Of a DNA stretch of 18,456 bases, positions 2,703-18,456 are shown in pieces. Made by a program: the position numbers and the translations under genes. Positions within the stretch are counted from its first letter, which is position 1; every line of letters starts with the position of its first letter. The notes under the pieces were generated by a model that had not been told where the DNA came from, did not search any database, and was given only the letters and a program-made list of their open reading frames with translations. This DNA comes from a virus (taxonomy: Duplodnaviria > Heunggongvirae > Uroviricota > Caudoviricetes): IMG/VR virus record IMGVR_UViG_2713896795_000004, positions 1-18,456 of that record. One strand, 5' to 3'.

Positions 2703-4549
<1,847 letters not shown>

Positions 4550-4974: not shown

Positions 4975-5544
4975 ATGGCAAAAAATAAAGACGATGGAAC
5001 CCGTTACACATATACGGAAATTGCCGAAAGATTTGGCGTAGAAATTAGTACCGCTTCGCGTATCTGGTCTGGAAAAGGACTGGATATTAACTGGCCTAAA
5101 AAATTAGTGGATCAGTGGTTACTAGCGAACGTAATCGAACCTATGCGTAATGGCGATGTAAAAGGAATGATTCATAAAGCTACACTACGCAAACTAGAAG
5201 CAGAAGCAGACCTGAAAGAATTAGAACTACGTCAACAATCGGGTGAACTAATTCCCGTTGCAGTAGTACAGCAAACATTATCACAATACTTCTATCAATT
5301 AAGACAAGTATTAAGAAGTATTCCCACATCAAGTTATGTTGAACTATTTGAATCACAGGACGCATTAGAATTAAAAATTAAATTACAGGATAAAATAGAC
5401 CGCCAGTTAGAAGAGATTGGCAGCTATGAATATGAGGGAACATATGAAGAACAACTATCAGAAGATGATGAAGGTACTAACGAGGGCGGCGAAATCAATC
5501 CTACCACCGAAGAAACAACTACCAGCGGAATGGGTAGAGAATAA
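4975..5544 (+). CDS. terminase small subunit (Nu1-like, N-terminal HTH), 189 aa
   Basis: N-terminal HTH-like segment YTYTEIAERFGVEISTASRIW, coiled-coil middle, acidic C-terminus. Sits immediately upstream of and overlapping the large terminase. AGGAAA before the ATG. Confidence 0.6.
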   Translation: MAKNKDDGTRYTYTEIAERFGVEISTASRIWSGKGLDINWPKKLVDQWLLANVIEPMRNGDVKGMIHKATLRKLEAEADLKELELRQQSGELIPVAVVQQTLSQYFYQLRQVLRSIPTSSYVELFESQDALELKIKLQDKIDRQLEEIGSYEYEGTYEEQLSEDDEGTNEGGEINPTTEETTTSGMGRE

Positions 5545-7345
5545 CCTAGTCTTCCCAGACGGCGAGCTACAGGGGCAAAGGGTCAAATTATTTGAGTTCC
5601 AAAAAAAGCCCTTGAATGACATAGTAAATCCCCGTATTCGTAAAGTGGTACTCATGAGTAGTGCTCAACTTCTCAAAACAACTGTACTTCAGAATAGTAT
5701 GTACTACTTCCTGGCAAATGATCCAAGTAACATGATCTTTGCGGGTGCAACTGGCGGTACTACAAGTAAGTTCCGTACTGGTAAATGGCAGGCAGTCATA
5801 GAGGCATGTTCGGTACTAAAGAATCTAGTAAGTAATAAGAATGATAAGAACTTTACTAATAACGATAAGACACAACAAAATTTAGATGGTACTTTTACTT
5901 ACTTTCTAACATTGGGTAGTAGTGCACAACTTCGCGGCCTGACAGCACCTCGCATATTTCTTGATGAAATATCCAACGTGGACGCGAGCGGGGATGAAGG
6001 CAACCCCCTGAAGCTAGCAGAACAGCGTACAAAGGCTTTTAGTAATCCCCTTATTATGTGTTGTTCTACTCCCCTTGATGAACATGACCTGATTACACAA
6101 CAGTACGAACAAAGTAATAAACAGAAGTTTTATGTACCGTGTCCACACTGTAACCACTCTCACGAATTAGTTTTTGAAAACGTTAAGTTTGACTGGAAGA
6201 TTATAGAAGGCGGTCGCCGCCGTATTCCTGATGCCGACACTGCAAGGCTAGAATGTCCAAAGTGTAGTAATGAAATCACAGAAGCCGAACGTGTACGAAT
6301 GATTCGTAAAGGAGAATGGATTGCAACAGCACCAGAGATTAAGGATATAGCTGGCTATCATGTCTCCCGCTTGTACTCTCCTATCAACTCTATCAAATCA
6401 ATTGTTGCCGACTTTGCCGAAGCACATTATACATTTGACCTGGCATCATTCTATAACAACGTATTAGGACTGCCATATATTGATAAAGAGAATAGCGAGC
6501 ATGACTTAGTATTATTAGAGAATCTAAGAGATAGTGAAATTGATATTGAAAATATACCAGATGATGTACTAGGGATCGTAATGGGCGTGGACCAGCAGCT
6601 TGATAGGTTGGAAATAAGCACACTAGGAGTAAGTGAAAAGAATCTATATGTACTTGATCACCGTAGTATCTACTCAATTGACTGTACTAAAATCGAAGCC
6701 CCAGCATGGAATAAGTTAACGGCCTTTGCAAATCATCCATTTAAAACACGTTCAGGTAAACCATTGAAGGTACTAGCCGGATTTGTCGATAGTTCAAACG
6801 GCAACGCAACCAGTACCGTGTACCGTTATTGCTCTAACTCTACTATCTTTAAACCTATCAAGGGTGGTACATCAAATACTAACCCACTATTCAAAGGTAG
6901 TACGGCTGGTGGTCACTCCCTGATTAACCTTAACCTTAACGTTAACTTAGGCAAGACTAACGTTAGACAGTTATTAAACCGTGCTGTATCAGATAATGAA
7001 AATAGTAAGGAAGTACAGATTCACTTTAGCCATTCAGTACCAGATGATTACTTTATTCAGGTTACATCAGAGAAGCGAGTAATAAAGGCTGGGGCGTGGG
7101 TATGGGTGAAGAAGATTAGTAGTGCACGTAATGAAACCTTAGACTGTTTAAACTATGCATTAATATGTTTCCAGTGGTATCTATCTAAGTTAGGTAGTCA
7201 ACCATACCGCCAGTTAAGGGAATATAACGCTAAACAAAAAGAGAAAGCAGGACTAAATAAAGAAGTAAATACAGAAGAAGCACCAACTAAGCCAACTCCT
7301 AAGCGAGTAATAAGGCCGCGTAAGGGTGGTGGTTTCTTTAAATAA
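5417..7345 (+). CDS. terminase large subunit, lambda GpA family
   Basis: Recalled similarity to lambda gpA: PAEWVENNLVFP...FEFQKKPLN versus lambda TAVEWADANYYLP...LPFQRAIMN; Cys/His cluster YVPCPHCNHSHEL...CPKC versus lambda HVACPHCGEE; GVDQQLDRLEI versus GIDSQLDRYEM. The track start at 5417 is TTG; in-frame ATGs at 5426, 5432, 5444 and 5465 are alternatives, so the start is uncertain and overlaps the terS 3' end. Confidence 0.85.
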   Translation: MAAMNMREHMKNNYQKMMKVLTRAAKSILPPKKQLPAEWVENNLVFPDGELQGQRVKLFEFQKKPLNDIVNPRIRKVVLMSSAQLLKTTVLQNSMYYFLANDPSNMIFAGATGGTTSKFRTGKWQAVIEACSVLKNLVSNKNDKNFTNNDKTQQNLDGTFTYFLTLGSSAQLRGLTAPRIFLDEISNVDASGDEGNPLKLAEQRTKAFSNPLIMCCSTPLDEHDLITQQYEQSNKQKFYVPCPHCNHSHELVFENVKFDWKIIEGGRRRIPDADTARLECPKCSNEITEAERVRMIRKGEWIATAPEIKDIAGYHVSRLYSPINSIKSIVADFAEAHYTFDLASFYNNVLGLPYIDKENSEHDLVLLENLRDSEIDIENIPDDVLGIVMGVDQQLDRLEISTLGVSEKNLYVLDHRSIYSIDCTKIEAPAWNKLTAFANHPFKTRSGKPLKVLAGFVDSSNGNATSTVYRYCSNSTIFKPIKGGTSNTNPLFKGSTAGGHSLINLNLNVNLGKTNVRQLLNRAVSDNENSKEVQIHFSHSVPDDYFIQVTSEKRVIKAGAWVWVKKISSARNETLDCLNYALICFQWYLSKLGSQPYRQLREYNAKQKEKAGLNKEVNTEEAPTKPTPKRVIRPRKGGGFFK

Positions 7346-7356
7346 GGAAAAATAAA

Positions 7357-7848
7357 ATGGCAATAGTTCGCAAAGTAACCCTAAGAGGCGATATCTTTAA
7401 AGGCGAGACTATTACATTCGACTACCCCGCAGGATCGGAAATTGATTTGATTGATCCTAACGGGGTAAAGACTTCATACACATACCCTTTCCCAGCTATT
7501 GATACTAGTAACTGGGATGCAGGTGTCTGGACTGCAATTATTAACAGTACCGTAGCGTATGGCGTACAACAATTCGAAGTAATAGATCCAACTTCAAAGG
7601 CGTCCGAATATAACGACCTGATGCAAATCATTAAAGATATTGATCAGATCATCATGGACAGAATTAAAGGCGGTGGTGTACTAAGTCAATCAATCCAAAA
7701 TAAATCATTAACATATGAAAGTAGTGAAATACTTATGAAGTTACGCCCTGTTTATGTCAGTCGTGCAAATGATTTACTTTCGGATATGAAAGGCTTTAAT
7801 ACTGGATGCCCTATTAAATCAATTACTACATTTAGGAGATCTCGTTAA
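7357..7848 (+). CDS. hypothetical protein between terminase and portal (163 aa); possible head-completion or accessory head protein
   Basis: AAGGA RBS and ATG start; its stop overlaps the portal start (TAATG). Function inferred from position only (lambda has gpW at the equivalent place). Confidence 0.45.
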   Translation: MAIVRKVTLRGDIFKGETITFDYPAGSEIDLIDPNGVKTSYTYPFPAIDTSNWDAGVWTAIINSTVAYGVQQFEVIDPTSKASEYNDLMQIIKDIDQIIMDRIKGGGVLSQSIQNKSLTYESSEILMKLRPVYVSRANDLLSDMKGFNTGCPIKSITTFRRSR

Positions 7849-9350
7849 TGTTCGGATGGAATAAAAAGAAAGTAGAAGAACCTAAACAAAAAGTTTTAGT
7901 ACAGAAGCCAGTGAAGCTAATGAAGAACAACCCTATGAAGCGTGCAATGTCTTCCCTGAATCTAGGATCTTCTAGTCCTGTTATCTCCTTTGGTTTCACG
8001 GGTGGTAATCAGGCAGGTAATATTAACGCCATCATTAACCGTACTCTACCTGTTATGGTTGCCGTGAGTCGTGAACTCTCGATTAAGAATGGTATTGTTA
8101 AGAAATATGTTTCTACTAACTCAGCAGGTGTAACAGGTGCGGATGGCCTATACATTCGTCCATGTACTCACTCTTCTGATAGTGAACAGGTTAACCAGTC
8201 AATCGATAAACAATTAGAAGATGCCTTCTATGCATGGGCGGAAGATCCTAAAGCCTTTTCACGTTGCGGTACTCTGGATATTAGTACCTTCCAACGTCTA
8301 GTAGAACGTACTCGTTCAGTAGATGGAGATTGTTTCATTCGTATTCACACTAAACCAGGTGAACTACCACAGGTTGAGATCATCGATTCAATGCGTATCT
8401 CTACCTATGAGAACCAGCTACTACCATCAGGTAACTATATTAGTAATGGTATCGAATTTGATATTAATACTAACCGTCCTGTAGCGTACTGGGTAACACG
8501 TTATAACCCTATCATGTATAACTATATGATTGGAGAACGTGAACGCGTACCAGCAGATGAAATTCTACACCTGTTTCAACAGGACTACCCAACGCAGCAA
8601 CGCGGGATACCTGATGTACATTCCGGTACTGAAAAGTTAAAAGAGCTAGAAGAGTTTATGTCAGCGGCAATTACTTCCCGTAAGGTTGCAGCGTCCGCAA
8701 TGGCATTTATCACTAATCCAGATAGTGACGATGTTCAGCTACTGACTGATGACAGTGTTTCGTACTATGATCAAGACTATCTAAATCCGGCTGCAATCGT
8801 AGAACTACAAGCAGGACAAGATATTAAAACAGTAAACCCAACTCAAACCACAGATGGAATTGATGAGTTTATTAATAACCAATTAATGATGATTGCAATG
8901 GGCTTGGATATTACAAAACAATCACTAACATCAGATACTAGTAATGCTTCATTCAGTGCAGCAAAACTGACTGATAAATTACAACAATCAACATTTAAAA
9001 GCCGCACTAATGCTTTAATTGTTTCGGTACTAAAACCTCTTTATATTGCATGGCTAAAATCTGCAATGCTAAATAGTAGTACGTTAAGCAATTTAAATTT
9101 TAGTGATTTTAATAAATTAACCCATGCACAATATGTACAGACTCGTCAAATCTCCCTTGATCCATTAAAAGACCTTCAAACCGAAGTATTAGCAATTGAT
9201 AACGGTTTAAAGAGTAAGGCAATGGTAATTTCAGAGATGGGATACGATCCTGTTATCGTCATGGAAGAGATAAAAAAGGAAAACAAGGAAAATGGAATTG
9301 AACCTGAACAAGAACCAGATGAGGGCGATCAATCTAACGCAGATCAATAA
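7848..9350 (+). CDS. portal protein (lambda gpB-like), 500 aa
   Basis: Canonical position after the large terminase, appropriate size, AGGAGA RBS. Weak recalled similarity to the lambda gpB region around ...NPAAIVELQAGQDIKTV...MIAMGLDITKQSL. Acidic C-terminal tail. Confidence 0.7.
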   Translation: MFGWNKKKVEEPKQKVLVQKPVKLMKNNPMKRAMSSLNLGSSSPVISFGFTGGNQAGNINAIINRTLPVMVAVSRELSIKNGIVKKYVSTNSAGVTGADGLYIRPCTHSSDSEQVNQSIDKQLEDAFYAWAEDPKAFSRCGTLDISTFQRLVERTRSVDGDCFIRIHTKPGELPQVEIIDSMRISTYENQLLPSGNYISNGIEFDINTNRPVAYWVTRYNPIMYNYMIGERERVPADEILHLFQQDYPTQQRGIPDVHSGTEKLKELEEFMSAAITSRKVAASAMAFITNPDSDDVQLLTDDSVSYYDQDYLNPAAIVELQAGQDIKTVNPTQTTDGIDEFINNQLMMIAMGLDITKQSLTSDTSNASFSAAKLTDKLQQSTFKSRTNALIVSVLKPLYIAWLKSAMLNSSTLSNLNFSDFNKLTHAQYVQTRQISLDPLKDLQTEVLAIDNGLKSKAMVISEMGYDPVIVMEEIKKENKENGIEPEQEPDEGDQSNADQ

Positions 9351-11154
9351 TGCAATTGATGAAGCTGATAGAACTGTAGAACTCTCCTTTGCCTCAGAAA
9401 TTCCAGTAGTACGCGACATTAAAGGGACTCTCTATAATGAGATCCTTTTATGCAGTCCTGAAAACGTAGACTTAAGCCGTCTTAATGACGGTGCACCTGT
9501 ACTAGTAGAACATGATGCAATGCGTCAAGTTGGTATAGTTGAGAATGCTCGCGTAGATATGGATAAAGTTTGCCGTGCTACTGTACGTTTTAGTGCACTT
9601 GGAACAGCAAATACTATCTTCGGTATGATCTTAGAAGGTATTCGCCCTAAAGTGTCCGTAGGTTATAACATCTTAGATTATCGTATTGATGGTAATAACC
9701 TAATTGTTTCAAAATGGGAACCCTATGAAATATCCAGTGTTTCGCAGCCAGCGGACAACTCAGTTGGGGTGGGAAGATCACTAAATAGTAATGAAGAAAT
9801 CACACTAGAGGATCTACCCAAAATGGAGCAAGAACAAAAAGAAGAACTAGTACAGGAAGTTGAAGTTATTAAGGAAGTACAGGAAGAAGAAGTACAAGCC
9901 GAAGTAATCGAAGAAGAAGTAGTAGTTCAGGAAGAATCAGTAGAAGTAGTAGAAGAACCGGAAGTAATTGAGGAAGTACAGGAAGTACAACCTGAATTAG
10001 TAGAAGAACGTTCTATTGCAATTACTGATATTCAAGAAAGCATAAATAAAGAAGTAGAAGCAAATCGTATTCGCGAACTTCAATCTATTTCTTTGGTACT
10101 AGGTGTTAGTACAGAAGAAGCAATTAACAACGGTGTAAGCGTAGAAGACTTTAAACGCTCACTAAATAAAGATAATAAATCAATTGATAAGGATATCAAA
10201 AAAATGGAAAAGAAATCTCTAATTAACGAAGGTCTACGTAGTCTAAAAGGTGAAACTCATGATCTAGAAACCTTCGAAAAAGGTGCACGCGGTTATAATG
10301 CAGACCTAAACGCTATGGTACGTTCTACCGCTGATACTACTTCTACTGTAACCGCAGCAGGTCTAGTAAAAGAAGAACTAGCAGACGCGTATATTCGTCA
10401 ACTACTCGCAGCTACTGTACTGGGCCAACTAGATGTAACTGTTTTTGGTGGCCTAGCGGGACGCGGCAATTTCTCTATCCCACGTGCTAAAGGTATGAAC
10501 CCAGCAGCTAAGTTTTACAATGAAGATGAAGCAGTATCCGACGGCTTCGAAACCTTCGATAAGATCACTCTAAAGCCTCGCATGTTCGCAGCAGGTATCA
10601 AGATCACTAAAGCAATGCTACTAAGCAACGCAGCTACCGAACGTTATGTTACCGACGAGCTATTACGCCAATGTTCTAACGGTCTAGAGTCCGCAGTATT
10701 TGCACAAATCGCTACTACTGTACCAGTACAGCAAACCGCTGTATCCGGTCAAGTATCCGAAGCAGACGTACAGAAAGCTATCGAAGCTATCTCCGCGAAA
10801 AACGTTGATATCAATCGTTGTGTTGCTATCGTGCATCCTTCTATGCTCGCTAAACTACGTCAAACCGCGGTATTGAATAACACCGCAGCAGTTGCAATGG
10901 TAGCTGGTCATCGTTATGACATGTGGCTAAACGACGAAGTACGCGTAATTGAATCTACTTTCGTAGCAGCAGATACTATTCTAATTGGTGACTTCTCTGA
11001 ACTAATTTTCGCTAACTGGAACGAAGGTCAAGAACTAGATTTTGATGATACTACTTACCGTGCAGCACAAACTATCGCTATCAGAAGTTTTCAGTACCTC
11101 GACGTAGCTATTGCACACGAAGAAGGATTTGTACTACTACAACTAAAACCATAA
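9292..11154 (+). CDS. fused prohead protease / acidic scaffold-like linker / HK97-fold major capsid protein (620 aa)
   Basis: N-terminal domain with candidate catalytic His in LVEHD (His74, nt 9511..9513) and Ser-containing segments. Acidic E/V/Q-rich repeat linker (aa 178-240). C-terminal domain with HK97-type MCP pattern: VAIVHPSMLAKL...MWLNDEVRVIESTFVAADTILIGDFSE compared with recalled HK97 gp5 IVLNPRDWHNI...MWGLPVVPT...FTVGGFD. Start may instead be the ATG at 9319. Confidence 0.7.
   Translation: MELNLNKNQMRAINLTQINNAIDEADRTVELSFASEIPVVRDIKGTLYNEILLCSPENVDLSRLNDGAPVLVEHDAMRQVGIVENARVDMDKVCRATVRFSALGTANTIFGMILEGIRPKVSVGYNILDYRIDGNNLIVSKWEPYEISSVSQPADNSVGVGRSLNSNEEITLEDLPKMEQEQKEELVQEVEVIKEVQEEEVQAEVIEEEVVVQEESVEVVEEPEVIEEVQEVQPELVEERSIAITDIQESINKEVEANRIRELQSISLVLGVSTEEAINNGVSVEDFKRSLNKDNKSIDKDIKKMEKKSLINEGLRSLKGETHDLETFEKGARGYNADLNAMVRSTADTTSTVTAAGLVKEELADAYIRQLLAATVLGQLDVTVFGGLAGRGNFSIPRAKGMNPAAKFYNEDEAVSDGFETFDKITLKPRMFAAGIKITKAMLLSNAATERYVTDELLRQCSNGLESAVFAQIATTVPVQQTAVSGQVSEADVQKAIEAISAKNVDINRCVAIVHPSMLAKLRQTAVLNNTAAVAMVAGHRYDMWLNDEVRVIESTFVAADTILIGDFSELIFANWNEGQELDFDDTTYRAAQTIAIRSFQYLDVAIAHEEGFVLLQLKP
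9823..10011. repeat. low-complexity acidic coding repeat (GAAGAA/GTAGAA-rich) inside the capsid ORF
   Basis: Translates to MEQEQKEELVQEVEVIKEVQEEEVQAEVIEEEVVVQEESVEVVEEPEVIEEVQEVQPELVEE; the DNA is built from imperfect gaagta/gaagaa units. Confidence 0.7.
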
Positions 11155-11166
11155 GGTACTTTCACT

Positions 11167-11487
11167 ATGAGGCATTTTACTAGCAATCAAATTGATTCTA
11201 CTTTTCTAAATGCCTTTGGTGAACCTATCACAATTAACGGGGCGACGTTCAAAGCTATTTTGGACAATCGCCCCGTAGTCATAGATAGCGGTACTGAAGG
11301 ACTAGTAGAAAGTACAGAAACATTTCTATCAGTGAAGACTGACGATCTAACTACTTTCAGTATCGCAATTGATTCCGAAGTAGTAGTACAGGGTACAAAT
11401 TACACTGTATACAATATCTATAATGATTTGAGCGGTATTTGTGAAGTTTACATAAGACCATCAACAATTAATAATTACGGGTGGTAA
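11167..11487 (+). CDS. hypothetical protein (106 aa); head-tail connector/adaptor candidate by position
   Basis: ATG ORF directly after the capsid gene, in the size range of HK97-like head-tail connector proteins. No motif evidence. Confidence 0.4.
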   Translation: MRHFTSNQIDSTFLNAFGEPITINGATFKAILDNRPVVIDSGTEGLVESTETFLSVKTDDLTTFSIAIDSEVVVQGTNYTVYNIYNDLSGICEVYIRPSTINNYGW

Positions 11488-11488
11488 T

Positions 11489-11884
11489 ATGGGACTATTA
11501 AGCGACGTACAAAAGACAATTAGAACCAGTCTGAATAATATCATGCCAATTCGAAAGGCAATGAATATCCAGGCAGGTAAAGATCTATTCATCTTAGTAT
11601 CAGTAAATCAGACATATTCACCAACCAACTTTGGCACACAACGCCAGACAGGAACATTCGATTTCCAATTTCTCCTAGTACCGGAACCATCAGTACAACT
11701 TCCCGCCGATTCCTACGGTACTATATTCGAATACTTCCGTACTAATACTATTAAAGAGTTTAAAGATAATAACGTCACTCTACTTTCTTATGAGTTTCAA
11801 GATAGCGAACAGGTAACAGATCCAACTACTGGCTATCAATCGTTATCGTTTGCAATAAATATTGTAGCAACTCAAAAACCATAA
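11489..11884 (+). CDS. hypothetical protein (131 aa); head-tail joining candidate by position
   Basis: ATG 1 nt after the previous stop (tightly coupled). Position-based call only. Confidence 0.4.
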   Translation: MGLLSDVQKTIRTSLNNIMPIRKAMNIQAGKDLFILVSVNQTYSPTNFGTQRQTGTFDFQFLLVPEPSVQLPADSYGTIFEYFRTNTIKEFKDNNVTLLSYEFQDSEQVTDPTTGYQSLSFAINIVATQKP

Positions 11885-11896
11885 GGAATATAGATA

Positions 11897-11924
11897 ATGA
11901 GTGATAATATTTTTACTGGTAGTG
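11897..11924 (+). pseudogene. 5' stub of a gene cut by IS2 (9 codons, MSDNIFTGS)
   Basis: AAGGAA RBS at 11883..11888, ATG at 11897, reading frame runs straight into the IS2 terminal inverted repeat at 11925. Confidence 0.35.
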
Positions 11925-11935
11925 TGGATTTGCCC

Positions 11936-12841
11936 CTATATTTCCAGACACCTGTTATCACTTAACCCATTACTGGCCCGCTGCCGTAGATATTCCCGTG
12001 GCGAGCGATAACCCAGTGCACTATGCGGATGCCATTCGTTATAATGCTCGAACGCCTCTGCAAGGTTCTTTGCTGCCGTTAACCCGTCTGGTTTGGGCAT
12101 GATACTGATGTAATCACGCTTTATCGTTTTCACGAAGCTCTCTGCTATGCCGTTACTCTCCGGACTCCGCACCGCCGTGTTCTTCGGTTCAAGTCCCAAC
12201 ATCCGGGCGAACTGGCGTGTTTCATTAGCCCGGTAGCATGAACCATTATCCGTCAGCCACTCCACTGGAGATGTCGGAAGCTCGCTGCCGAAGCGGCGTT
12301 CCACCGCTCCCAGCATGACGTCCTGTACTGTTTCACTGTCGAAGCCGCCCGTAGTGACCGCCCAGTGCAGTGCCTCACGGTCACAGCAGTCCAGCGCGAA
12401 CGTGACTCGCAGTTTTTCTCCGTTATCACAGCGGAACTCGAACCCGTCAGAGCACCATCGTTGATTGCTTTCTTTCACGGCCACTTTGCCAGTATGTGCC
12501 CGTTTCGATGGCGGTACAGCGGTTTTTCGCTCAAGCAACAGCGCATTCTGGCGCATGATCCGGTAAACACGTTTGGCATTGATAGCAGGCATACCATCAA
12601 GTTCGGCCTGTCTGCGAAGCAGCGCCCATACCCGACGATAACCATACGTGGGCAGCTCTCCGATAACATGGTGTATACGGAGAAGCACATCCGTATCATC
12701 TGAGTGACGGCTGCAGCGACCATCTTTCCAGTCATCGGTTCGTCTGAGAATGACGTGCAACTGCGCACGCGACACCCGGAGACAACGGCTGACTAAGCTT
12801 ACTCCCCATCCCCGGGCAATAAGGGCGCGTGCGCTATCCAC
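11936..12841 (-). CDS. insD: IS2 transposase OrfB (InsD), DDE integrase-like catalytic domain, 301 aa
   Basis: Matches recalled InsD sequence. Overlaps insC in the -1 frame at the AAAAAAG slippery site, so the InsCD fusion would arise by programmed frameshift. GTG start. Confidence 0.9.
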
Positions 12842-13164
12842 TTTTTTGCACGCCCATATTCAACGGCTTCTTTAAGGAGTTCATTTTCCATCGTTTTTTT
12901 GCCGAGCAGGCGCTGAAGTTCTTTAATCTGCTTCATGGCAGCAGCAAGTTCAGAGGCAGGAACGACCTGTTCTCCTGCGGCCACAGCAGTAAGACTTCCC
13001 TCCTGGTATTGCTTGCGCCATAGAAATAACTGGCTGGCTGCCACACCGTGTTGCCGGGCAACAAGGGAGACCGTCATTCCCGGTTCAAAGCTCTGCTGAA
13101 CAATAGCGATCTTTTCCTGTGTAGTACGCCGTCTGCGTTTCTCCGGTCCTAAGACATCAATCAT
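12799..13164 (-). CDS. insC: IS2 transposase OrfA (InsC), HTH DNA-binding protein, 121 aa
   Basis: Translation from the ATG at 13164 matches recalled InsC ([56 protein letters not shown]...). The track ORF extends further 5' to an upstream alternative start. Confidence 0.9.
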
Positions 13165-13256
13165 CTGTTCTCCAATGACTAGTCTAAAAACTAGTATTAA
13201 GACTATCACTTATTTAAGTGATATTGGTTGTCTGGAGATTCAGGGGGCCAGTCTAG

Positions 13257-13784
13257 AAAGGTAAATGCATCCCACGAGATTTAAAGGTTAACGAAACAAA
13301 CGCTGACTATCTTTTCCGTAAGTTCGGTGAACTTGAATCAAAACTCAACGAGCAGCGTGAGTATTACGAGGGCGTTATCTCGGATGGGAGTAAGCGTATT
13401 GCTGAACTGGAGAAAAGCGAAGAGCAACTCATCAACGAGCGTGACCATGCTGAGTCTGCTTTAGCTGATATGTACTTTGCAGCAACCGGTAACAGGCCGG
13501 AGTGGAGCAACTGGTTCGGCTTTTCAGATGCTGTCGATGCCGTGGTTGACAGAATAGCTGATTTAGAAGCTAAACAGCCATCGCCGGTAGTGCCGGATAA
13601 TGCATCAGGGTCGCTTGCTTATGCTTACAAAGAGCTTACGCCTGAGATTATGCGCGGTCATATCGCTGTATTCGAGCGATATGGAATAGCCCCAAACGAT
13701 AGCATTACCACAATTCAGGCACTGCGAATCGCGCTGGATGGTATAGAGCGGAGCAACGCCATGCTTCAGGGGAAAGGAGAGTGA
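13257..13784 (+). pseudogene. N-terminally truncated coiled-coil protein of the lambdoid early-accessory region (possibly Ea22-like), cut by IS2
   Basis: Reading frame is open from the first base after IS2 (stop TAG lies inside the IS2 end at 13254..13256) through 13784, with no start codon near the IS boundary. Coiled-coil-like LESKLNEQREYYEGVISDGSKRIAELEKSEEQLINE. The Ea22 assignment is from memory and weak. Confidence 0.45.
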
Positions 13785-13785
13785 T

Positions 13786-14301
13786 ATGGCGTTAACACAC
13801 AGCGAACTCTGTCAGATTGCGTACAAGTTCCTTAAGCGCAACGGGTTCAAGGTTTGTTTTCATGACCGCTTTATAGCTGTAACCAGTACCGGAGAACAGC
13901 CAGATGCTATGGGATTCAGAAATTCAGCATCATGCCTGATAGAGGCGAAGTGTTCTCGTGCTGACTTGTTGGCAGATAGAAAAAAGCGTTTTCGTAAAAA
14001 TCCGTCTCTTGGAATGGGCGACTGGCGATTCTTTATTAGTGAGCCGGGGATTATTTCAATTGAGGATTTACCACCTGGCTGGGGATTACTTCACGTTGTT
14101 AACGGAAGAGTACGGAAAGTACATGGGTGGCCAAAGGGCAATTGCTGTTGGGGTAATCCTGACGATAAGCCATTTACTGGAAATAAGCAGGTTGAATGCG
14201 ATTACATGTTATCTGCATTAAGGCGCATGGAGTTGAGAGGGCACCTTAATGAAATATATGACGGTGTAATTGTTAATAAGAAAGAAGGAAACGCGGCATG
14301 A
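13786..14301 (+). CDS. hypothetical protein with PD-(D/E)xK-like nuclease motif (171 aa)
   Basis: AAAGGAGAG RBS, ATG 1 nt after the previous stop. Motif ...EQPDAMGF...(12 aa)...LIEAKCSRADL resembles the PD...(D/E)xK core of restriction-endonuclease-fold proteins. Family not assigned. Confidence 0.5.
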   Translation: MALTHSELCQIAYKFLKRNGFKVCFHDRFIAVTSTGEQPDAMGFRNSASCLIEAKCSRADLLADRKKRFRKNPSLGMGDWRFFISEPGIISIEDLPPGWGLLHVVNGRVRKVHGWPKGNCCWGNPDDKPFTGNKQVECDYMLSALRRMELRGHLNEIYDGVIVNKKEGNAA

Positions 14302-15137
14302 CCACTATTACCAAAGAGCGACTGCTGACAATCAAGCAGTGGCGCGAAACATACGGACCTGGTAGCAACGTTGTACTGCCAGCAGAAGAAGCGGAAGAAC
14401 TGGCACGAATTGCTCTGGCATCGCTGGAAGCAAAACCAATAGGTGCTTTCCACATTGCAGAACAGCAGGTCGATGGCACAAGTGACTACATCAAGGATGG
14501 GGAGTGGCCTATTGATAACGGGATAATTGAAGTATACGCCGCTCCGCCAGTGCCGGTAGTACCTGGGGAAATTGCTGATGATTTAATGGAGAAATTACCG
14601 AAAAGTGATGCATGGGCTAATGGGTTTCGTGGTGGCTGGAACGCCTGCCGCGCAGTCATGCTTCAGTCCGGAAACTTTCGGAAAATCCCGGAAGCGTCAA
14701 CCAGCTCTCCGGTAACTCCGCCTCTTTTGCCTGGTGGTTTCACCATTGAGGATGCGAAGGAGTTACATGAAGACCTGGTTCGCAGCCACATAAGCCAGGC
14801 TTTAAGTGGCGAAAAGATGAAAAAGAAAGATCGCGAGGCTGATTTGCGCTGGATTCATGGCGTAATAGTTCAGGCTGCGTGGTTTGTAAAGGCATCACTG
14901 GAGCAGAATGCACTATCGGGCAACTCTCCGGTAACTCCGGATAGTTGGATAAGCTGTAGTGAGCGAATGCCGGAAGAAACGGGTGACATTATTGTTGTTT
15001 CGGATGGCATTGTAATGTCAGGGATTTCTTATTCTCGTCGTGACGGGTTCTATATGGCCGCATTGGAGTACGACGACGACGAACCAATTGACGGTGTAAC
15101 CCACTGGATGCCGCTGCCAGAACCGCCGCAGGGGTGA
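14298..15137 (+). CDS. phage protein with C-terminal DUF551-like domain (279 aa)
   Basis: ATGA start/stop overlap with the previous gene. C-terminal SERMPEE...VTHWMPLPEPP matches the recalled DUF551 signature (ER[ML]PE ... W-x-PLP-x-PP) common in lambdoid early-region accessory genes. Confidence 0.55.
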   Translation: MTTITKERLLTIKQWRETYGPGSNVVLPAEEAEELARIALASLEAKPIGAFHIAEQQVDGTSDYIKDGEWPIDNGIIEVYAAPPVPVVPGEIADDLMEKLPKSDAWANGFRGGWNACRAVMLQSGNFRKIPEASTSSPVTPPLLPGGFTIEDAKELHEDLVRSHISQALSGEKMKKKDREADLRWIHGVIVQAAWFVKASLEQNALSGNSPVTPDSWISCSERMPEETGDIIVVSDGIVMSGISYSRRDGFYMAALEYDDDEPIDGVTHWMPLPEPPQG

Positions 15138-15203
15138 AATGATGCTTGGCCTGAAGTATTTTATGTAATTGGTATTGCTATATTTTTATCTGGGGATAAA
15201 CGA

Positions 15204-15446
15204 ATGTTCTCTCTGATTCAACGTGGTCAGATATACACCGATAGCGCTGGCTATCCAGTAAAAATCATTCGTAGTACTGATCACTCAGTATTCTTCAAGA
15301 GGATGGATGGCTATCCTGGAAGAGTGTGCATCAGAAAATTCAATAATTTATTCGAACACATTGATCACAGAGAATATCACCAGATCCTGGCTGAAACAGA
15401 GCAGGAGAACCATCTGAAAAAATTACGTGCCATGCAAAGGAGATAA
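15204..15446 (+). CDS. hypothetical lambdoid early-region protein (80 aa)
   Basis: ATG ORF in the position occupied by ea-type genes in lambda; no motif evidence. Confidence 0.45.
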   Translation: MFSLIQRGQIYTDSAGYPVKIIRSTDHSVFFKRMDGYPGRVCIRKFNNLFEHIDHREYHQILAETEQENHLKKLRAMQRR

Positions 15447-15526
15447 ACCGGTAAAGGTGTTCGCGATAAAGGTGAATATCGGCAATGAATAACAATCCTC
15501 GAACTCGCGGGGATTTCTTTTATCTG

Positions 15527-15553
15527 AACTCGCTACGGCGAGTTTTGTTTTAT
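15527..15553 (+). terminator. putative intrinsic terminator
   Basis: 7-bp stem AACTCGC / GCGAGTT with 4-nt loop TACG, followed by TTGTTTTAT. Confidence 0.35.
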
Positions 15554-15564
15554 GGAGATGATAA

Positions 15565-15732
15565 ATGCACTTCCGAGTCACAGGTGAATGGAATGGAGAG
15601 CCATTCAACAGAGTTATCGAGGCAGAGAACATCAACGACTGCTATGACCACTGGATGCTGTGGGCGCAGATAGCACATGCAGACGTAACCAATATTCGAA
15701 TTGAAGAACTGAAAGAACACCAATCCGCCTGA
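15565..15732 (+). CDS. small hypothetical protein (55 aa), same size and spacing as the small ORF just upstream of xis in phage lambda
   Basis: Manual translation MHFRVTGEWNGEPFNRVIEAENINDCYDHWMLWAQIAHADVTNIRIEELKEHQSA. GGAGA RBS 7 nt before the ATG; ends 39 nt before xis. Below the ORF-track size cut-off. Confidence 0.45.
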   Translation: MHFRVTGEWNGEPFNRVIEAENINDCYDHWMLWAQIAHADVTNIRIEELKEHQSA

Positions 15733-15747
15733 TGGCGGCTTTTTCTT
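15725..15747 (+). terminator. putative intrinsic terminator overlapping the stop of the 55-aa ORF
   Basis: CCGCC-TGAT-GGCGG hairpin followed by CTTTTTCTT. Confidence 0.35.
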
Positions 15748-15771
15748 GCGTGTAATTGCGGAGACTTTGCG

Positions 15772-15990
15772 ATGTACTTGACACTTCAGGAGTGGAACGC
15801 ACGCCAGCGACGCCCAAGAAGCCTTGAAACAGTTCGTCGATGGGTGCGCGAATGCAGGATATTCCCTCCTCCGGTTAAGGATGGAAGAGAGTATCTGTTC
15901 CACGAATCAGCGGTAAAGGTTGACTTAAATCGACCAGTAACAGGTAGCCTTTTGAAGAGGATCAGAAATGGGAAGAAGGCGAAGTCATGA
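15772..15990 (+). CDS. xis: excisionase Xis (lambda type), 72 aa
   Basis: MYLTLQEWNARQRRPRSLETVRRWVRECRIFPPPVKDGREYLFHESAVKVDLNRPVTGSLLKRIRNGKKAKS matches recalled lambda Xis. Overlaps the int start as in lambda. Confidence 0.95.
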   Translation: MYLTLQEWNARQRRPRSLETVRRWVRECRIFPPPVKDGREYLFHESAVKVDLNRPVTGSLLKRIRNGKKAKS

Positions 15991-17038
15991 GCGCCGGGAT
16001 TTACCCCCTAACCTTTATATAAGAAACAATGGATATTACTGCTACAGGGACCCAAGGACGGGTAAAGAGTTTGGATTAGGCCGAGACAGGAGGATAGCAA
16101 TCACTGAAGCTATACAGGCCAACATTGAGTTATTTTCAGGACACAAACACAAGCCTCTGACAGCGAGAATCAACAGTGATAATTCTGTTACGTTACATTC
16201 ATGGCTTGATCGCTACGAAAAAATCCTCGCCAGCAGAGGAATCAAGCAGAAGACACTCATAAATTACATGAGCAAAATTAAAGCAATAAGGAGGGGTCTG
16301 CCTGATGTTTCACTTGAAGACATCACCACAAAAGAAATTGCGGCAATGCTCAATGGATACATAGACGAGGGCAAGGCGGCGTCAGCCAAGTTAATCAGAT
16401 CAACACTGAGCGATGCATTCCGAGAGGCAATAGCTGAAGGCCATATAACAACAAACCCGGTCGCTGCCACTCGCGCAGCAAAATCAGAGGTAAGGAGATC
16501 AAGACTTACGGCTGACGAATACCTGAAAATTTATCAAGCAGCAGAATCATCACCATGTTGGCTCAGACTTGCAATGGAACTGGCTGTTGTTACCGGGCAG
16601 CGAGTTGGTGATTTATGCGAAATGAAGTGGTCTGATATCGTAGATGGATATCTTTATGTCGAGCAAAGCAAAACAGGCGTAAAAATTGCCATCCCTACAA
16701 CATTGCATGTTGATGCTCTCGGGATATCAATGAAGGAAACACTTGGTAAATGCAAAGAGATTCTTGGCGGAGAAACCATAATTGCATCTACTCGTCGTGA
16801 ACCGCTTTCATCCGGCACAGTATCAAGGTATTTTATGCGCGCACGAAAAGCATCAGGTCTTTCCTTCGAAGGGGATCCGCCAACCTTTCACGAGTTGCGC
16901 AGTTTGTCTGCAAGACTCTATGAGAAGCAGATAAGCGATAAGTTTGCTCAACATCTTCTCGGGCATAAGTCGGACACCATGGCATCACAGTATCGTGATG
17001 ACAGAGGCAGGGAGTGGGACAAAATTGAAATCAAATAA
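15968..17038 (+). CDS. int: tyrosine integrase Int (lambda type), 356 aa
   Basis: Near-identical to recalled lambda Int over its whole length (MGRRRSHERRDLPPNLYIRNNGYYCYRDPRTGKEFGLGRDRR ... HELRSLSARLYEKQISDKFAQHLLGHKSDTMASQYRDDRGREWDKIEIK). Catalytic R...H-x-x-R...Y context present. Confidence 0.97.
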   Translation: MGRRRSHERRDLPPNLYIRNNGYYCYRDPRTGKEFGLGRDRRIAITEAIQANIELFSGHKHKPLTARINSDNSVTLHSWLDRYEKILASRGIKQKTLINYMSKIKAIRRGLPDVSLEDITTKEIAAMLNGYIDEGKAASAKLIRSTLSDAFREAIAEGHITTNPVAATRAAKSEVRRSRLTADEYLKIYQAAESSPCWLRLAMELAVVTGQRVGDLCEMKWSDIVDGYLYVEQSKTGVKIAIPTTLHVDALGISMKETLGKCKEILGGETIIASTRREPLSSGTVSRYFMRARKASGLSFEGDPPTFHELRSLSARLYEKQISDKFAQHLLGHKSDTMASQYRDDRGREWDKIEIK

Positions 17039-17133
17039 TGATTTTATTTTGACTGATAGTGACCTGTTCGTTGCAACAAATTGATAAGCAATGCTTTTTT
17101 ATAATGCCAACTTAGTATAAAAAAGCAGGCTTC
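17039..17133. other. attL: lambda P' arm plus 15-bp core (reverse complement of GCTTTTTTATACTAA at 17112..17126) joined to the bacterial B arm
   Basis: Sequence TTTTATTTTGACTGATAGTGACCTGTTCGTTGCAACAAATTGATAAGCAATGCTTTTTTATAATGCCAACTTAGTATAAAAAAGCAGGCTTCA matches the recalled lambda attL/P' arm, with the core directly followed by host sequence leading into ybhC. Confidence 0.9.
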
Positions 17134-17172
17134 AACGGATTCATTTTTCTATTTCATAGCCCGGAGCAACCT

Positions 17173-18456
17173 GTGAACACATTTTCAGTTTCCCGTCTGG
17201 CGCTGGCATTGGCTTTTGGCGTGACGCTGACCGCCTGTAGCTCAACACCGCCCGATCAACGTCCTTCTGATCAAACCGCGCCTGGTACCTCTTCTCGCCC
17301 GATTCTGTCGGCAAAAGAAGCGCAGAATTTCGATGCTCAACACTATTTTGCATCCCTGACACCAGGTGCGGCAGCGTGGAATCCTTCCCCGATTACCCTG
17401 CCTGCGCAACCTGACTTTGTTGTCGGCCCGGCGGGTACTCAAGGTGTAACGCATACCACGATTCAGGCGGCGGTAGATGCGGCAATTATCAAGCGTACCA
17501 ACAAGCGCCAGTATATTGCCGTGATGCCTGGTGAGTATCAGGGAACGGTGTATGTCCCTGCCGCTCCGGGTGGAATTACTCTATACGGTACAGGTGAAAA
17601 ACCGATTGATGTGAAGATTGGGCTTTCCCTTGATGGTGGCATGAGCCCTGCCGACTGGCGTCACGACGTCAACCCGCGCGGCAAATATATGCCAAGTAAA
17701 CCGGCGTGGTATATGTACGATAGCTGCCAGAGTAAACGCAGCGACAGTATCGGTGTTCTCTGCTCTGCGGTCTTCTGGTCACAAAACAATGGCCTGCAAC
17801 TGCAAAACCTGACCATCGAAAACACGCTGGGCGATAGCGTAGATGCGGGTAACCATCCGGCGGTGGCACTGCGTACTGATGGCGACAAAGTGCAGATCAA
17901 TAACGTCAACATTCTCGGTCGTCAGAACACCTTCTTTGTCACCAACAGCGGTGTGCAGAACCGTCTGGAAACGAATCGCCAGCCGCGTACGCTGGTGACC
18001 AACAGCTATATTGAAGGGGATGTGGATATCGTTTCTGGTCGCGGCGCAGTGGTGTTCGATAACACCGAATTCCGCGTGGTGAACTCCCGTACCCAGCAAG
18101 AAGCGTATGTGTTTGCACCGGCTACGCTGTCCAACATTTACTACGGTTTCCTCGCCGTAAACAGCCGTTTCAATGCTTCCGGTGATGGCGTGGCGCAACT
18201 GGGCCGCTCGCTGGATGTTGATGCCAATACCAACGGTCAGGTAGTGATCCGTGATAGCGCCATCAACGAAGGTTTTAACACGGCGAAACCGTGGGCCGAT
18301 GCGGTGATTTCCAATCGTCCATTCGCGGGTAACACCGGCAGCGTTGATGATAACGACGAAGTACAGCGTAATCTGAATGACACTAACTACAACCGCATGT
18401 GGGAATACAATAACCGCGGCGTGGGTAGCAAAGTGGTTGCAGAGGCGAAGAAGTAG
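17173..18456 (+). CDS. ybhC: YbhC, pectinesterase-fold outer-membrane lipoprotein (putative acyl-CoA thioesterase), 427 aa, complete
   Basis: GTG start; lipobox LTAC in MNTFSVSRLALALAFGVTLTACSS; sequence matches recalled E. coli YbhC. Known chromosomal neighbour of attB-lambda. Composition is host-like. Confidence 0.9.
   Translation: MNTFSVSRLALALAFGVTLTACSSTPPDQRPSDQTAPGTSSRPILSAKEAQNFDAQHYFASLTPGAAAWNPSPITLPAQPDFVVGPAGTQGVTHTTIQAAVDAAIIKRTNKRQYIAVMPGEYQGTVYVPAAPGGITLYGTGEKPIDVKIGLSLDGGMSPADWRHDVNPRGKYMPSKPAWYMYDSCQSKRSDSIGVLCSAVFWSQNNGLQLQNLTIENTLGDSVDAGNHPAVALRTDGDKVQINNVNILGRQNTFFVTNSGVQNRLETNRQPRTLVTNSYIEGDVDIVSGRGAVVFDNTEFRVVNSRTQQEAYVFAPATLSNIYYGFLAVNSRFNASGDGVAQLGRSLDVDANTNGQVVIRDSAINEGFNTAKPWADAVISNRPFAGNTGSVDDNDEVQRNLNDTNYNRMWEYNNRGVGSKVVAEAKK

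Follow-up and report, generated by a model that had tools for sequence, protein, structure and literature searches.

A predicted PD-(D/E)XK endonuclease of the phage P7 Upf89.0 family in the mosaic early-left accessory region of a lambda-type prophage

Results

Organization of the locus

The subject of this study is a pair of adjoining genes for proteins of 171 and 279 amino acids (aa), and above all the 171-aa product, a predicted nuclease, in an 18,456-nucleotide stretch of tailed-phage DNA (IMG/VR record IMGVR_UViG_2713896795_000004), the whole of which is here called the window. In its right-hand third the window contains the integrase end of a prophage of lambda type, at the attachment (att) site of lambda: lambda 29361-27724 and window 15489-17126 share 97.9% DNA identity across orf55, xis, int and the att arm, Xis matches Pfam Exc (E = 3.9e-41), and ybhC (17173 onward) adjoins the att core, an int-ybhC arrangement also found in Escherichia coli A26. 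Upstream of 15489 the similarity to lambda ends, save for 87 bases (13336-13422) that are 92% identical to the coiled-coil segment of lambda ea22 (30169-30083). From left to right the genes are an Ead/Ea22-like gene cut by an IS2-like element, the 171-aa nuclease gene, an EaA-type DUF551 gene, a DUF4222 gene, orf55, xis and int, followed by the att core (Table 1). In lambda itself ea8.5 and ea22 occupy the corresponding interval, between xis/orf55 and the Ea22 coiled coil; neither ea8.5 nor the C-terminal domain of lambda Ea22 has sequence similarity to the window, which carries instead the DUF4222 protein, the DUF551 protein, the nuclease and a different Ea22 C-terminus.

The Ea22-like remnant and the two genes behind it are tightly coupled. 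The 171-aa open reading frame (ORF) begins one base past the stop of the Ea22-like frame (TGA-T-ATG), behind an AAAGGAG Shine-Dalgarno sequence, and the start codon of the 279-aa ORF overlaps the 171-aa stop as ATGA (GCATGACC). Both are real genes and not chance ORFs, because each has thousands of homologues. A scan of 11800-18456 against Rfam found no RNA families, and a promoter scan of 13200-15800 found no plus-strand promoter-like site. The first-pass annotation, made from the letters alone, had described this layout correctly in every detail, the motifs that it quoted included: the two translationally coupled ORFs are where it placed them, Int, Xis, att and the 55-aa ORF are lambda-like, the interval filled in lambda by ea8.5 and ea22 has other contents here, and the upstream coiled-coil ORF is indeed truncated.

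Table 1. Features of the window, with position, strand and the basis of each assignment.
Feature	Position	Strand	Basis or remark
IS2-like (IS3-family) insertion sequence	11925-13255 (ends approximate)	-	136-aa and 301-aa minus-strand ORFs; 33-nt terminal inverted repeats at 11933-11965 and 13214-13246
Ead/Ea22-like 3' remnant	13257-13784	+	Frame open from 13257; first in-frame start at 13470 (104 aa)
171-aa predicted PD-(D/E)XK endonuclease, P7 Upf89.0 family	13786-14301	+	PHROG 631/9263
Putative catalytic codons	D40 13903-13905; E53 13942-13944; K55 13948-13950	+	Conservation; alignment with Hjc and 3dnx
279-aa mosaic EaA-type protein	14298-15137	+	Pfam PF04448; PHROG 60; mosaic alignment
Internal 73-codon module of the DUF551 gene	14702-14939	+	Bounded by an 18/19 direct repeat
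DUF4222 protein, 80 aa	15204-15446	+	Pfam PF13973, E = 2.6e-15; PHROG 285; sits at the position of lambda ea8.5
Lambda-type orf55, xis, int	15565-15732; 15772-15990; 15968-17038	+	97.9% DNA identity to lambda
Lambda att core GCTTTTTTATACTAA	17112-17126	-	15 bp, exact match; prophage/chromosome junction

Fold and putative catalytic site of the 171-aa protein

The 171-aa protein carries the motif P39-D40-A-M-G-F ... L-I-E53-A-K55, and in an alignment of 43 homologues (59-99% identity) D27, E37, D40, E53 and K55 are invariant, accompanied by the conserved blocks GMGDWRF, GWGLL, KPF..NKQ.E and RR. Among 50 relatives at 34-56% identity D40 still does not vary, and conservation of E37, E53 and K55 is 90% or higher. 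AlphaFold gave a confident model (predicted local distance difference test score, pLDDT, 89.3; predicted template modelling score, pTM, 0.83), which runs helix, three strands, helix, strand, which is the order of the alpha-beta-beta-beta-alpha-beta core of PD-(D/E)XK enzymes, with D40 at the start of strand 2 and E53 and K55 at the end of strand 3. These three residues align with D42, E55 and K57 of the archaeal resolvase Hjc and with the D...IECK motif of 3dnx, so that the PD-(D/E)XK-like character first proposed from the motif is upheld by both model and conservation.

Searches of Pfam, NCBIfam and PADLOC with the 171-aa protein found no match, and PDB sequence searches with either the 171-aa or the 279-aa protein as a single query gave chance-level matches only. 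A profile built from distant relatives matched the 3dnx sequence over the catalytic motif (E = 3e-4), and Hjc more weakly. Individual relatives touched the MmcB-like family PF06319 (8 of 50, best E = 2.9e-4) and the Hjc family PF01870 (10 of 50), and several proteins named MmcB-like DNA repair protein were returned by Foldseek from viral models. The protein belongs to a large phage family lacking a Pfam entry (3222 clusters at 50% identity, E ≤ 0.001, for the wider nuclease family), for which the model shows a PD-(D/E)XK fold with an intact D40...E53-x-K55 site.

The nuclease domain is also found fused to short Ead/Ea22-like N-termini in Salmonella proteins of 240-245 aa; in another fusion (P0009) an Ea22 coiled coil meets the nuclease at about nuclease residue 12, and H5 is missing. 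Unrelated N-terminal extensions of about 260 aa (P0256, 428 aa in all) and 95 aa (P0254) occur as well.

Nearest known families

The closest described relatives, all of them remote, are the archaeal Holliday-junction resolvases and the DUF1052/MmcB-like proteins (PF06319, COG5321), the latter a family whose structure is 3dnx, SPO1766 (PMC3424549), and which profile analysis has linked to archaeal junction resolvases (PMC1189080). Its Caulobacter member MmcB, the only one for which SOS-induced crosslinker resistance is recorded, is a PD-(D/E)XK endonuclease that is induced in the SOS response and confers protection from mitomycin C and cisplatin (PMC9578287). Structural and profile similarity to 3dnx was found for the window family; on the other hand, the GWGLL, KPF-x-NKQ-x-E and SALRR motifs of its C-terminal half are specific to the phage proteins, and MmcB is a chromosomal SOS gene mainly of alpha-proteobacteria, whereas the window protein is encoded by a phage. 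The 171-aa protein is therefore best placed as a phage sister family of the MmcB-like proteins, outside PF06319 as Pfam delimits it. Matches to archaeal Hjc (PF01870; 1hh1, 4tkk, 2eo0) were all below threshold (best E 0.008 and 1.3e-4), with the D, E and K residues aligned; lambdoid phages already have other resolvases, and NinG/Rap is a neighbour of the nuclease in some loci.

Phage P7 Upf89.0 is in essence this very protein (99.4% identical across 171 aa), lies in the same flanking order (Ead-like Upf88.3, Upf89.0, Upf89.5) and differs in nothing of substance; the PHROG match has E = 1e-122. Since neither Upf89.0 nor the PHROG 631/9263 entries carry a functional annotation, they provide no mechanism, and a literature search found no functional study of Upf89, SPO1766 or PHROG 631. 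A homologue in Vibrio phage Her (KX581090.3, locus L090, 3486-4178) carries the product name 'structural protein' and a note reading 'spo1766 structure'; the note ties the homologue to 3dnx independently and by structure, and the product name is a misleading rendering of that link. Other database records name homologues 'adenylosuccinate synthase'.

Distribution and gene neighbourhood

Proteins of Shigella phage Ss-VASD and of an Stx2a-converting phage are 99.4% identical to the 171-aa protein, and those of other Stx1 and Stx2 phages about 98%. At 95% or higher DNA identity the gene was present in 928 of 5426 complete E. coli genomes (17%), with as many as six copies in one genome; 248 of the places are on plasmids, several of which measure about 90-107 kb, similar in size to P1/P7-type phage-plasmids.

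The order Ead/Ea22-like protein, nuclease, DUF551-type protein is common to Ss-VASD, P7 and the window, and Klebsiella phage KpnS_VR6602 has the nuclease followed by an 'EaA protein'. An intact equivalent at ybhC in E. coli A26 reads N ... erf ... anti-RecBCD ... Ea22-like and then the identical nuclease gene, behind which a dATP/dGTP pyrophosphohydrolase takes the place of the 279-aa gene, followed by DUF4222, orf55, xis and int. RefSeq marks the A26 nuclease gene (NZ_CP028749.1, locus L087, 6001-6179) as a 179-base frameshifted pseudogene. At the DNA level, however, it is 100% identical to the 516-base ORF that is intact in the window, and the pseudogene call probably reflects an artefact of annotation.

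Of 60 E. coli records chosen as a spread sample, most had an upstream gene named ead/Ea22-like, and the gene downstream encoded a DUF551 protein, a pyrophosphohydrolase or a hypothetical protein. Across 80 IMG/VR loci the arrangement was seldom found, with DUF551 immediately downstream in 4 of 69 and Ead_Ea22 immediately upstream in 4 of 74, and other flanking genes encoded NinB, NinG, SSB, YbcO, helicases and methylases. Within 3 kb of the gene in 26 more distant loci, 9 of 149 ORFs encoded DNA methylases and four RdgC, and DnaB, NinG, SSB and replication protein O were also present. Two virulent phages carry a 205-aa homologue: in Vibrio phage vB_VpS_C2 (locus L003, 3863-5607) the order is polymerase (DNA polymerase I), helicase, helicase, homologue, primase, with a 4-bp overlap between homologue and primase, and in Kuttervirus FEC14 (locus L004, 3980-5661) the homologue directly abuts the primase on its upstream side. 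The contexts in other Vibrio phages were uninformative.

The 279-aa DUF551 protein

The C-terminus of the 279-aa protein, noted earlier as DUF551-like from the motifs SERMPEE (221-227) and WMPLPEPP (270-277), matches DUF551 (PF04448) at residues 216-278 (nt 14943-15131) over the full profile (positions 1-68 of 68; E = 1.5e-15, 58.2 bits vs. a cut-off of 22). A deposited E. coli 'DUF551 domain-containing protein' (P0121) has the identical sequence, and at least 8000 relatives were found. An alignment of homologues shows a conserved N-terminal module (1-45), variable blocks and the C-terminal DUF551, with conserved linkers recurring between the variable blocks (PPVPVVPEE; GWNACRAAMLQSGNF...SSPVTP). 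An 18/19 direct repeat (CAGCTCTCCGGTAACTCCG; 14702-14720 and 14921-14939) brackets the internal 73-codon module, and in some homologues this module is absent and the SSPVTP linker is joined straight to DUF551, which argues for exchange of modules, with the linkers as the sites of recombination. The 279-aa protein is a patchwork of modules of which DUF551 alone is recognisable; no NCBIfam match was found, and the only PADLOC match, to PglZ, was not significant (E = 0.024, 11 bits).

A C-terminal DUF551 and a lambdoid early accessory location are shared with P22 EaA, CPS-53 YfdS and the Stx-phage Ea22 variant V2, whose N-terminal modules are unrelated to or shuffled with respect to those of the 279-aa protein. 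Functional data among DUF551 proteins concern YfdS of CPS-53 only, and its mechanism is not defined (PMC4776307; PMC10834534); it contributes to suppression of hda-185 over-initiation, and its deletion gives sensitivity to H2O2 (PMC4776307).

The Ea22-like remnant and the left-hand modules

The Ea22-like gene has lost its 5' part to the IS2-like element, which also separates the lambda-type remnant from a low-GC head-gene module. The remnant, whose translation includes SKLNEQREYYEGVISDGSKRIAELE, belongs to PHROG 6847, has a C-terminal domain unlike that of lambda Ea22 and corresponds to an intact gene annotated ead/Ea22-like in E. coli A26; a Pfam search with its 104-aa product found neither PF13935 (Ead/Ea22-like) nor any other match. 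No similarity was detectable between it and its counterpart in Ss-VASD (locus L001, 4298-4996), although the adjacent nuclease genes are nearly identical, which places a mosaic breakpoint at the gene boundary. The intact 171-aa and 279-aa genes may be poorly expressed in the window genome, because the insertion has taken away the upstream operon and the stretch behind it has no plus-strand promoter-like site.

The head module (4975-11884) is of lambda type, with a small terminase candidate, a gpA-type large terminase (5417-7345), a portal (7848-9350) and a capsid-domain fusion (9292-11154). The module borders on the IS2-like element, is transcribed in the direction of int, opposite to the order in a lambda prophage, and has DNA matches of only about 86%, in two E. 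coli genomes. The IS2-like element probably marks a rearrangement or the joint of two phage-derived segments. Further left, in a stretch of 30-35% GC, a minus-strand gene (2703-4523) encodes a 606-aa protein with an AAA_15 ATPase and an OLD-like TOPRIM domain, which in PADLOC scores best against the Old model (E = 1.5e-74) and next against those of AriA and GajA; it is a likelier candidate for a defence gene than the 171-aa and 279-aa genes.

Discussion

The locus is an ordinary piece of the mosaic accessory region that lambdoid phages carry on the early left ('ea', exo-xis), and the nuclease gene in it stands alone, with variable partners, an early DNA-metabolism or accessory location and no match to known defence proteins. 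On the evidence of the model and the aligned residues, the Upf89.0/PHROG 631 family is probably an active PD-(D/E)XK endonuclease related to MmcB and Hjc. We put at about 0.5 the probability that it is a structure-specific DNA endonuclease with an accessory role, belonging to the early recombination/replication region of the phage. The protein would be made early from the leftward operon and is predicted to act as a metal-dependent, stand-alone DNA endonuclease, most likely on a branched, stalled or damaged DNA structure and not on a specific sequence, and its cleavage would support phage recombination, replication or repair. A structure-acting role is suggested because the nearest relatives are a resolvase and a crosslink-repair nuclease, and because the homologues of two virulent phages adjoin the primase.

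Several observations weigh against such a role. The 171-aa protein does not match PF06319 even at E values up to 10, so that the gathering score is not reached, and the glutamate of helix 1 in the Hjc site is not conserved, E7 being variable while H5 and E37 are conserved. A Foldseek search of the PDB gave no significant match and did not list 3dnx, its weak matches being PD-(D/E)XK enzymes, a discrepancy between this method and the profile match to 3dnx. The model of the 279-aa protein is unusable (pLDDT 36.9) and its fold uninformative. In the literature searched no biochemical or genetic tests of members of the nuclease family were found, and the substrate is argued solely from remote relatives and gene neighbourhood. 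Moreover, DNA-metabolism genes abound in early phage regions in any case, and the lambdoid contexts are accessory and non-essential, where other roles fit equally well.

The first-pass annotation had regarded the region as unusual and as pointing to defence or anti-defence. The nuclease would then be an effector of host takeover, anti-defence, or prophage defence and superinfection exclusion, degrading host, competitor-phage or defence-related nucleic acids. The gene does lie in the ea region, which is non-essential and known to harbour accessory genes, and it is highly mobile, with near-identical copies in lambdoid, Stx and P1/P7-type elements; DNA methyltransferases are frequent near its distant homologues, and its domain is sometimes fused to other modules, as in P0256. 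We nonetheless consider this function unlikely, as neither PADLOC nor NCBIfam gave a significant match, the neighbourhoods surveyed held no conserved partner (sensor, inhibitor or methylase), and the homologues of the two virulent phages lie within replication gene clusters. The frequency of methylases was also the reason to consider restriction-modification, which was rejected on finding no methylase beside the gene in the window or in the intact A26 prophage. The supposed peculiarity of the region was not supported, given a gene so common in complete E. coli genomes, Stx phages and P7. Both proteins proved to be ordinary, widely conserved ea-region products, one half of what the first-pass annotation had named as grounds for abandoning its proposal; the other half, absence of a nuclease fold, did not follow, as such a fold is predicted.

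The stop-start and ATGA junctions, the shared gene order of Ss-VASD and P7 with the nuclease-EaA pair of KpnS_VR6602, the ead/Ea22-like name of the upstream gene in most sampled E. coli records and the rare proteins (P0090, P0100, P0009) that fuse the nuclease domain to an Ea22 N-terminus could suggest a dedicated multi-gene system, either a nuclease with a regulator or inhibitor, or an Ea22 scaffold with a nuclease effector and a DUF551 adaptor. However, tight coupling is the norm throughout these operons, the partners on both sides are rarely present in the IMG/VR loci, DUF551 proteins have a much wider distribution than the nuclease, and the Ea22-like protein upstream in Ss-VASD is dissimilar to that of the window. 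The downstream partner varies even at 100% nuclease identity, as with the pyrophosphohydrolase of A26, and so we see no dedicated two-gene system; an obligate nuclease-DUF551 pair was accordingly rejected, and the 279-aa gene appears to be an independent accessory gene. We therefore hold a dedicated system to be quite improbable, and give only slightly more credence to the related proposal that Upf89.0-family nucleases are effectors acting with the tetrameric Ea22 scaffold encoded just upstream, and not housekeeping helpers of recombination or repair. PD-(D/E)XK homing endonucleases exist, and a gene that is 95-100% identical across otherwise mosaic backgrounds, with conserved junctions at the gene boundaries, recalls a selfish element spreading by cutting gene-less alleles at the Ea22/EaA junction. 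This is the least credible of the readings and very improbable, as the protein is small and has no extra DNA-recognition domain, its homologues occupy other positions, including those beside the primase, and shared linker sequences with ordinary recombination already explain the mosaic exchange.

Both genes are thus ordinary and widespread within the mosaic ea region of lambdoid phages; there is no sign of a new kind of system, and we saw no evidence of a defence role for either. The practical gain lies in better annotation, as a product labelled 'hypothetical' in about one sixth of complete E. coli genomes, in Stx-converting phages, in P1/P7-type plasmid prophages and in virulent phages of two groups can be given the description of a PD-(D/E)XK endonuclease, probably active, with MmcB and Hjc as relatives. 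In Stx phages the genes of the exo-xis region affect induction of the prophage and thereby the release of toxin, and this region gains one more testable enzyme.
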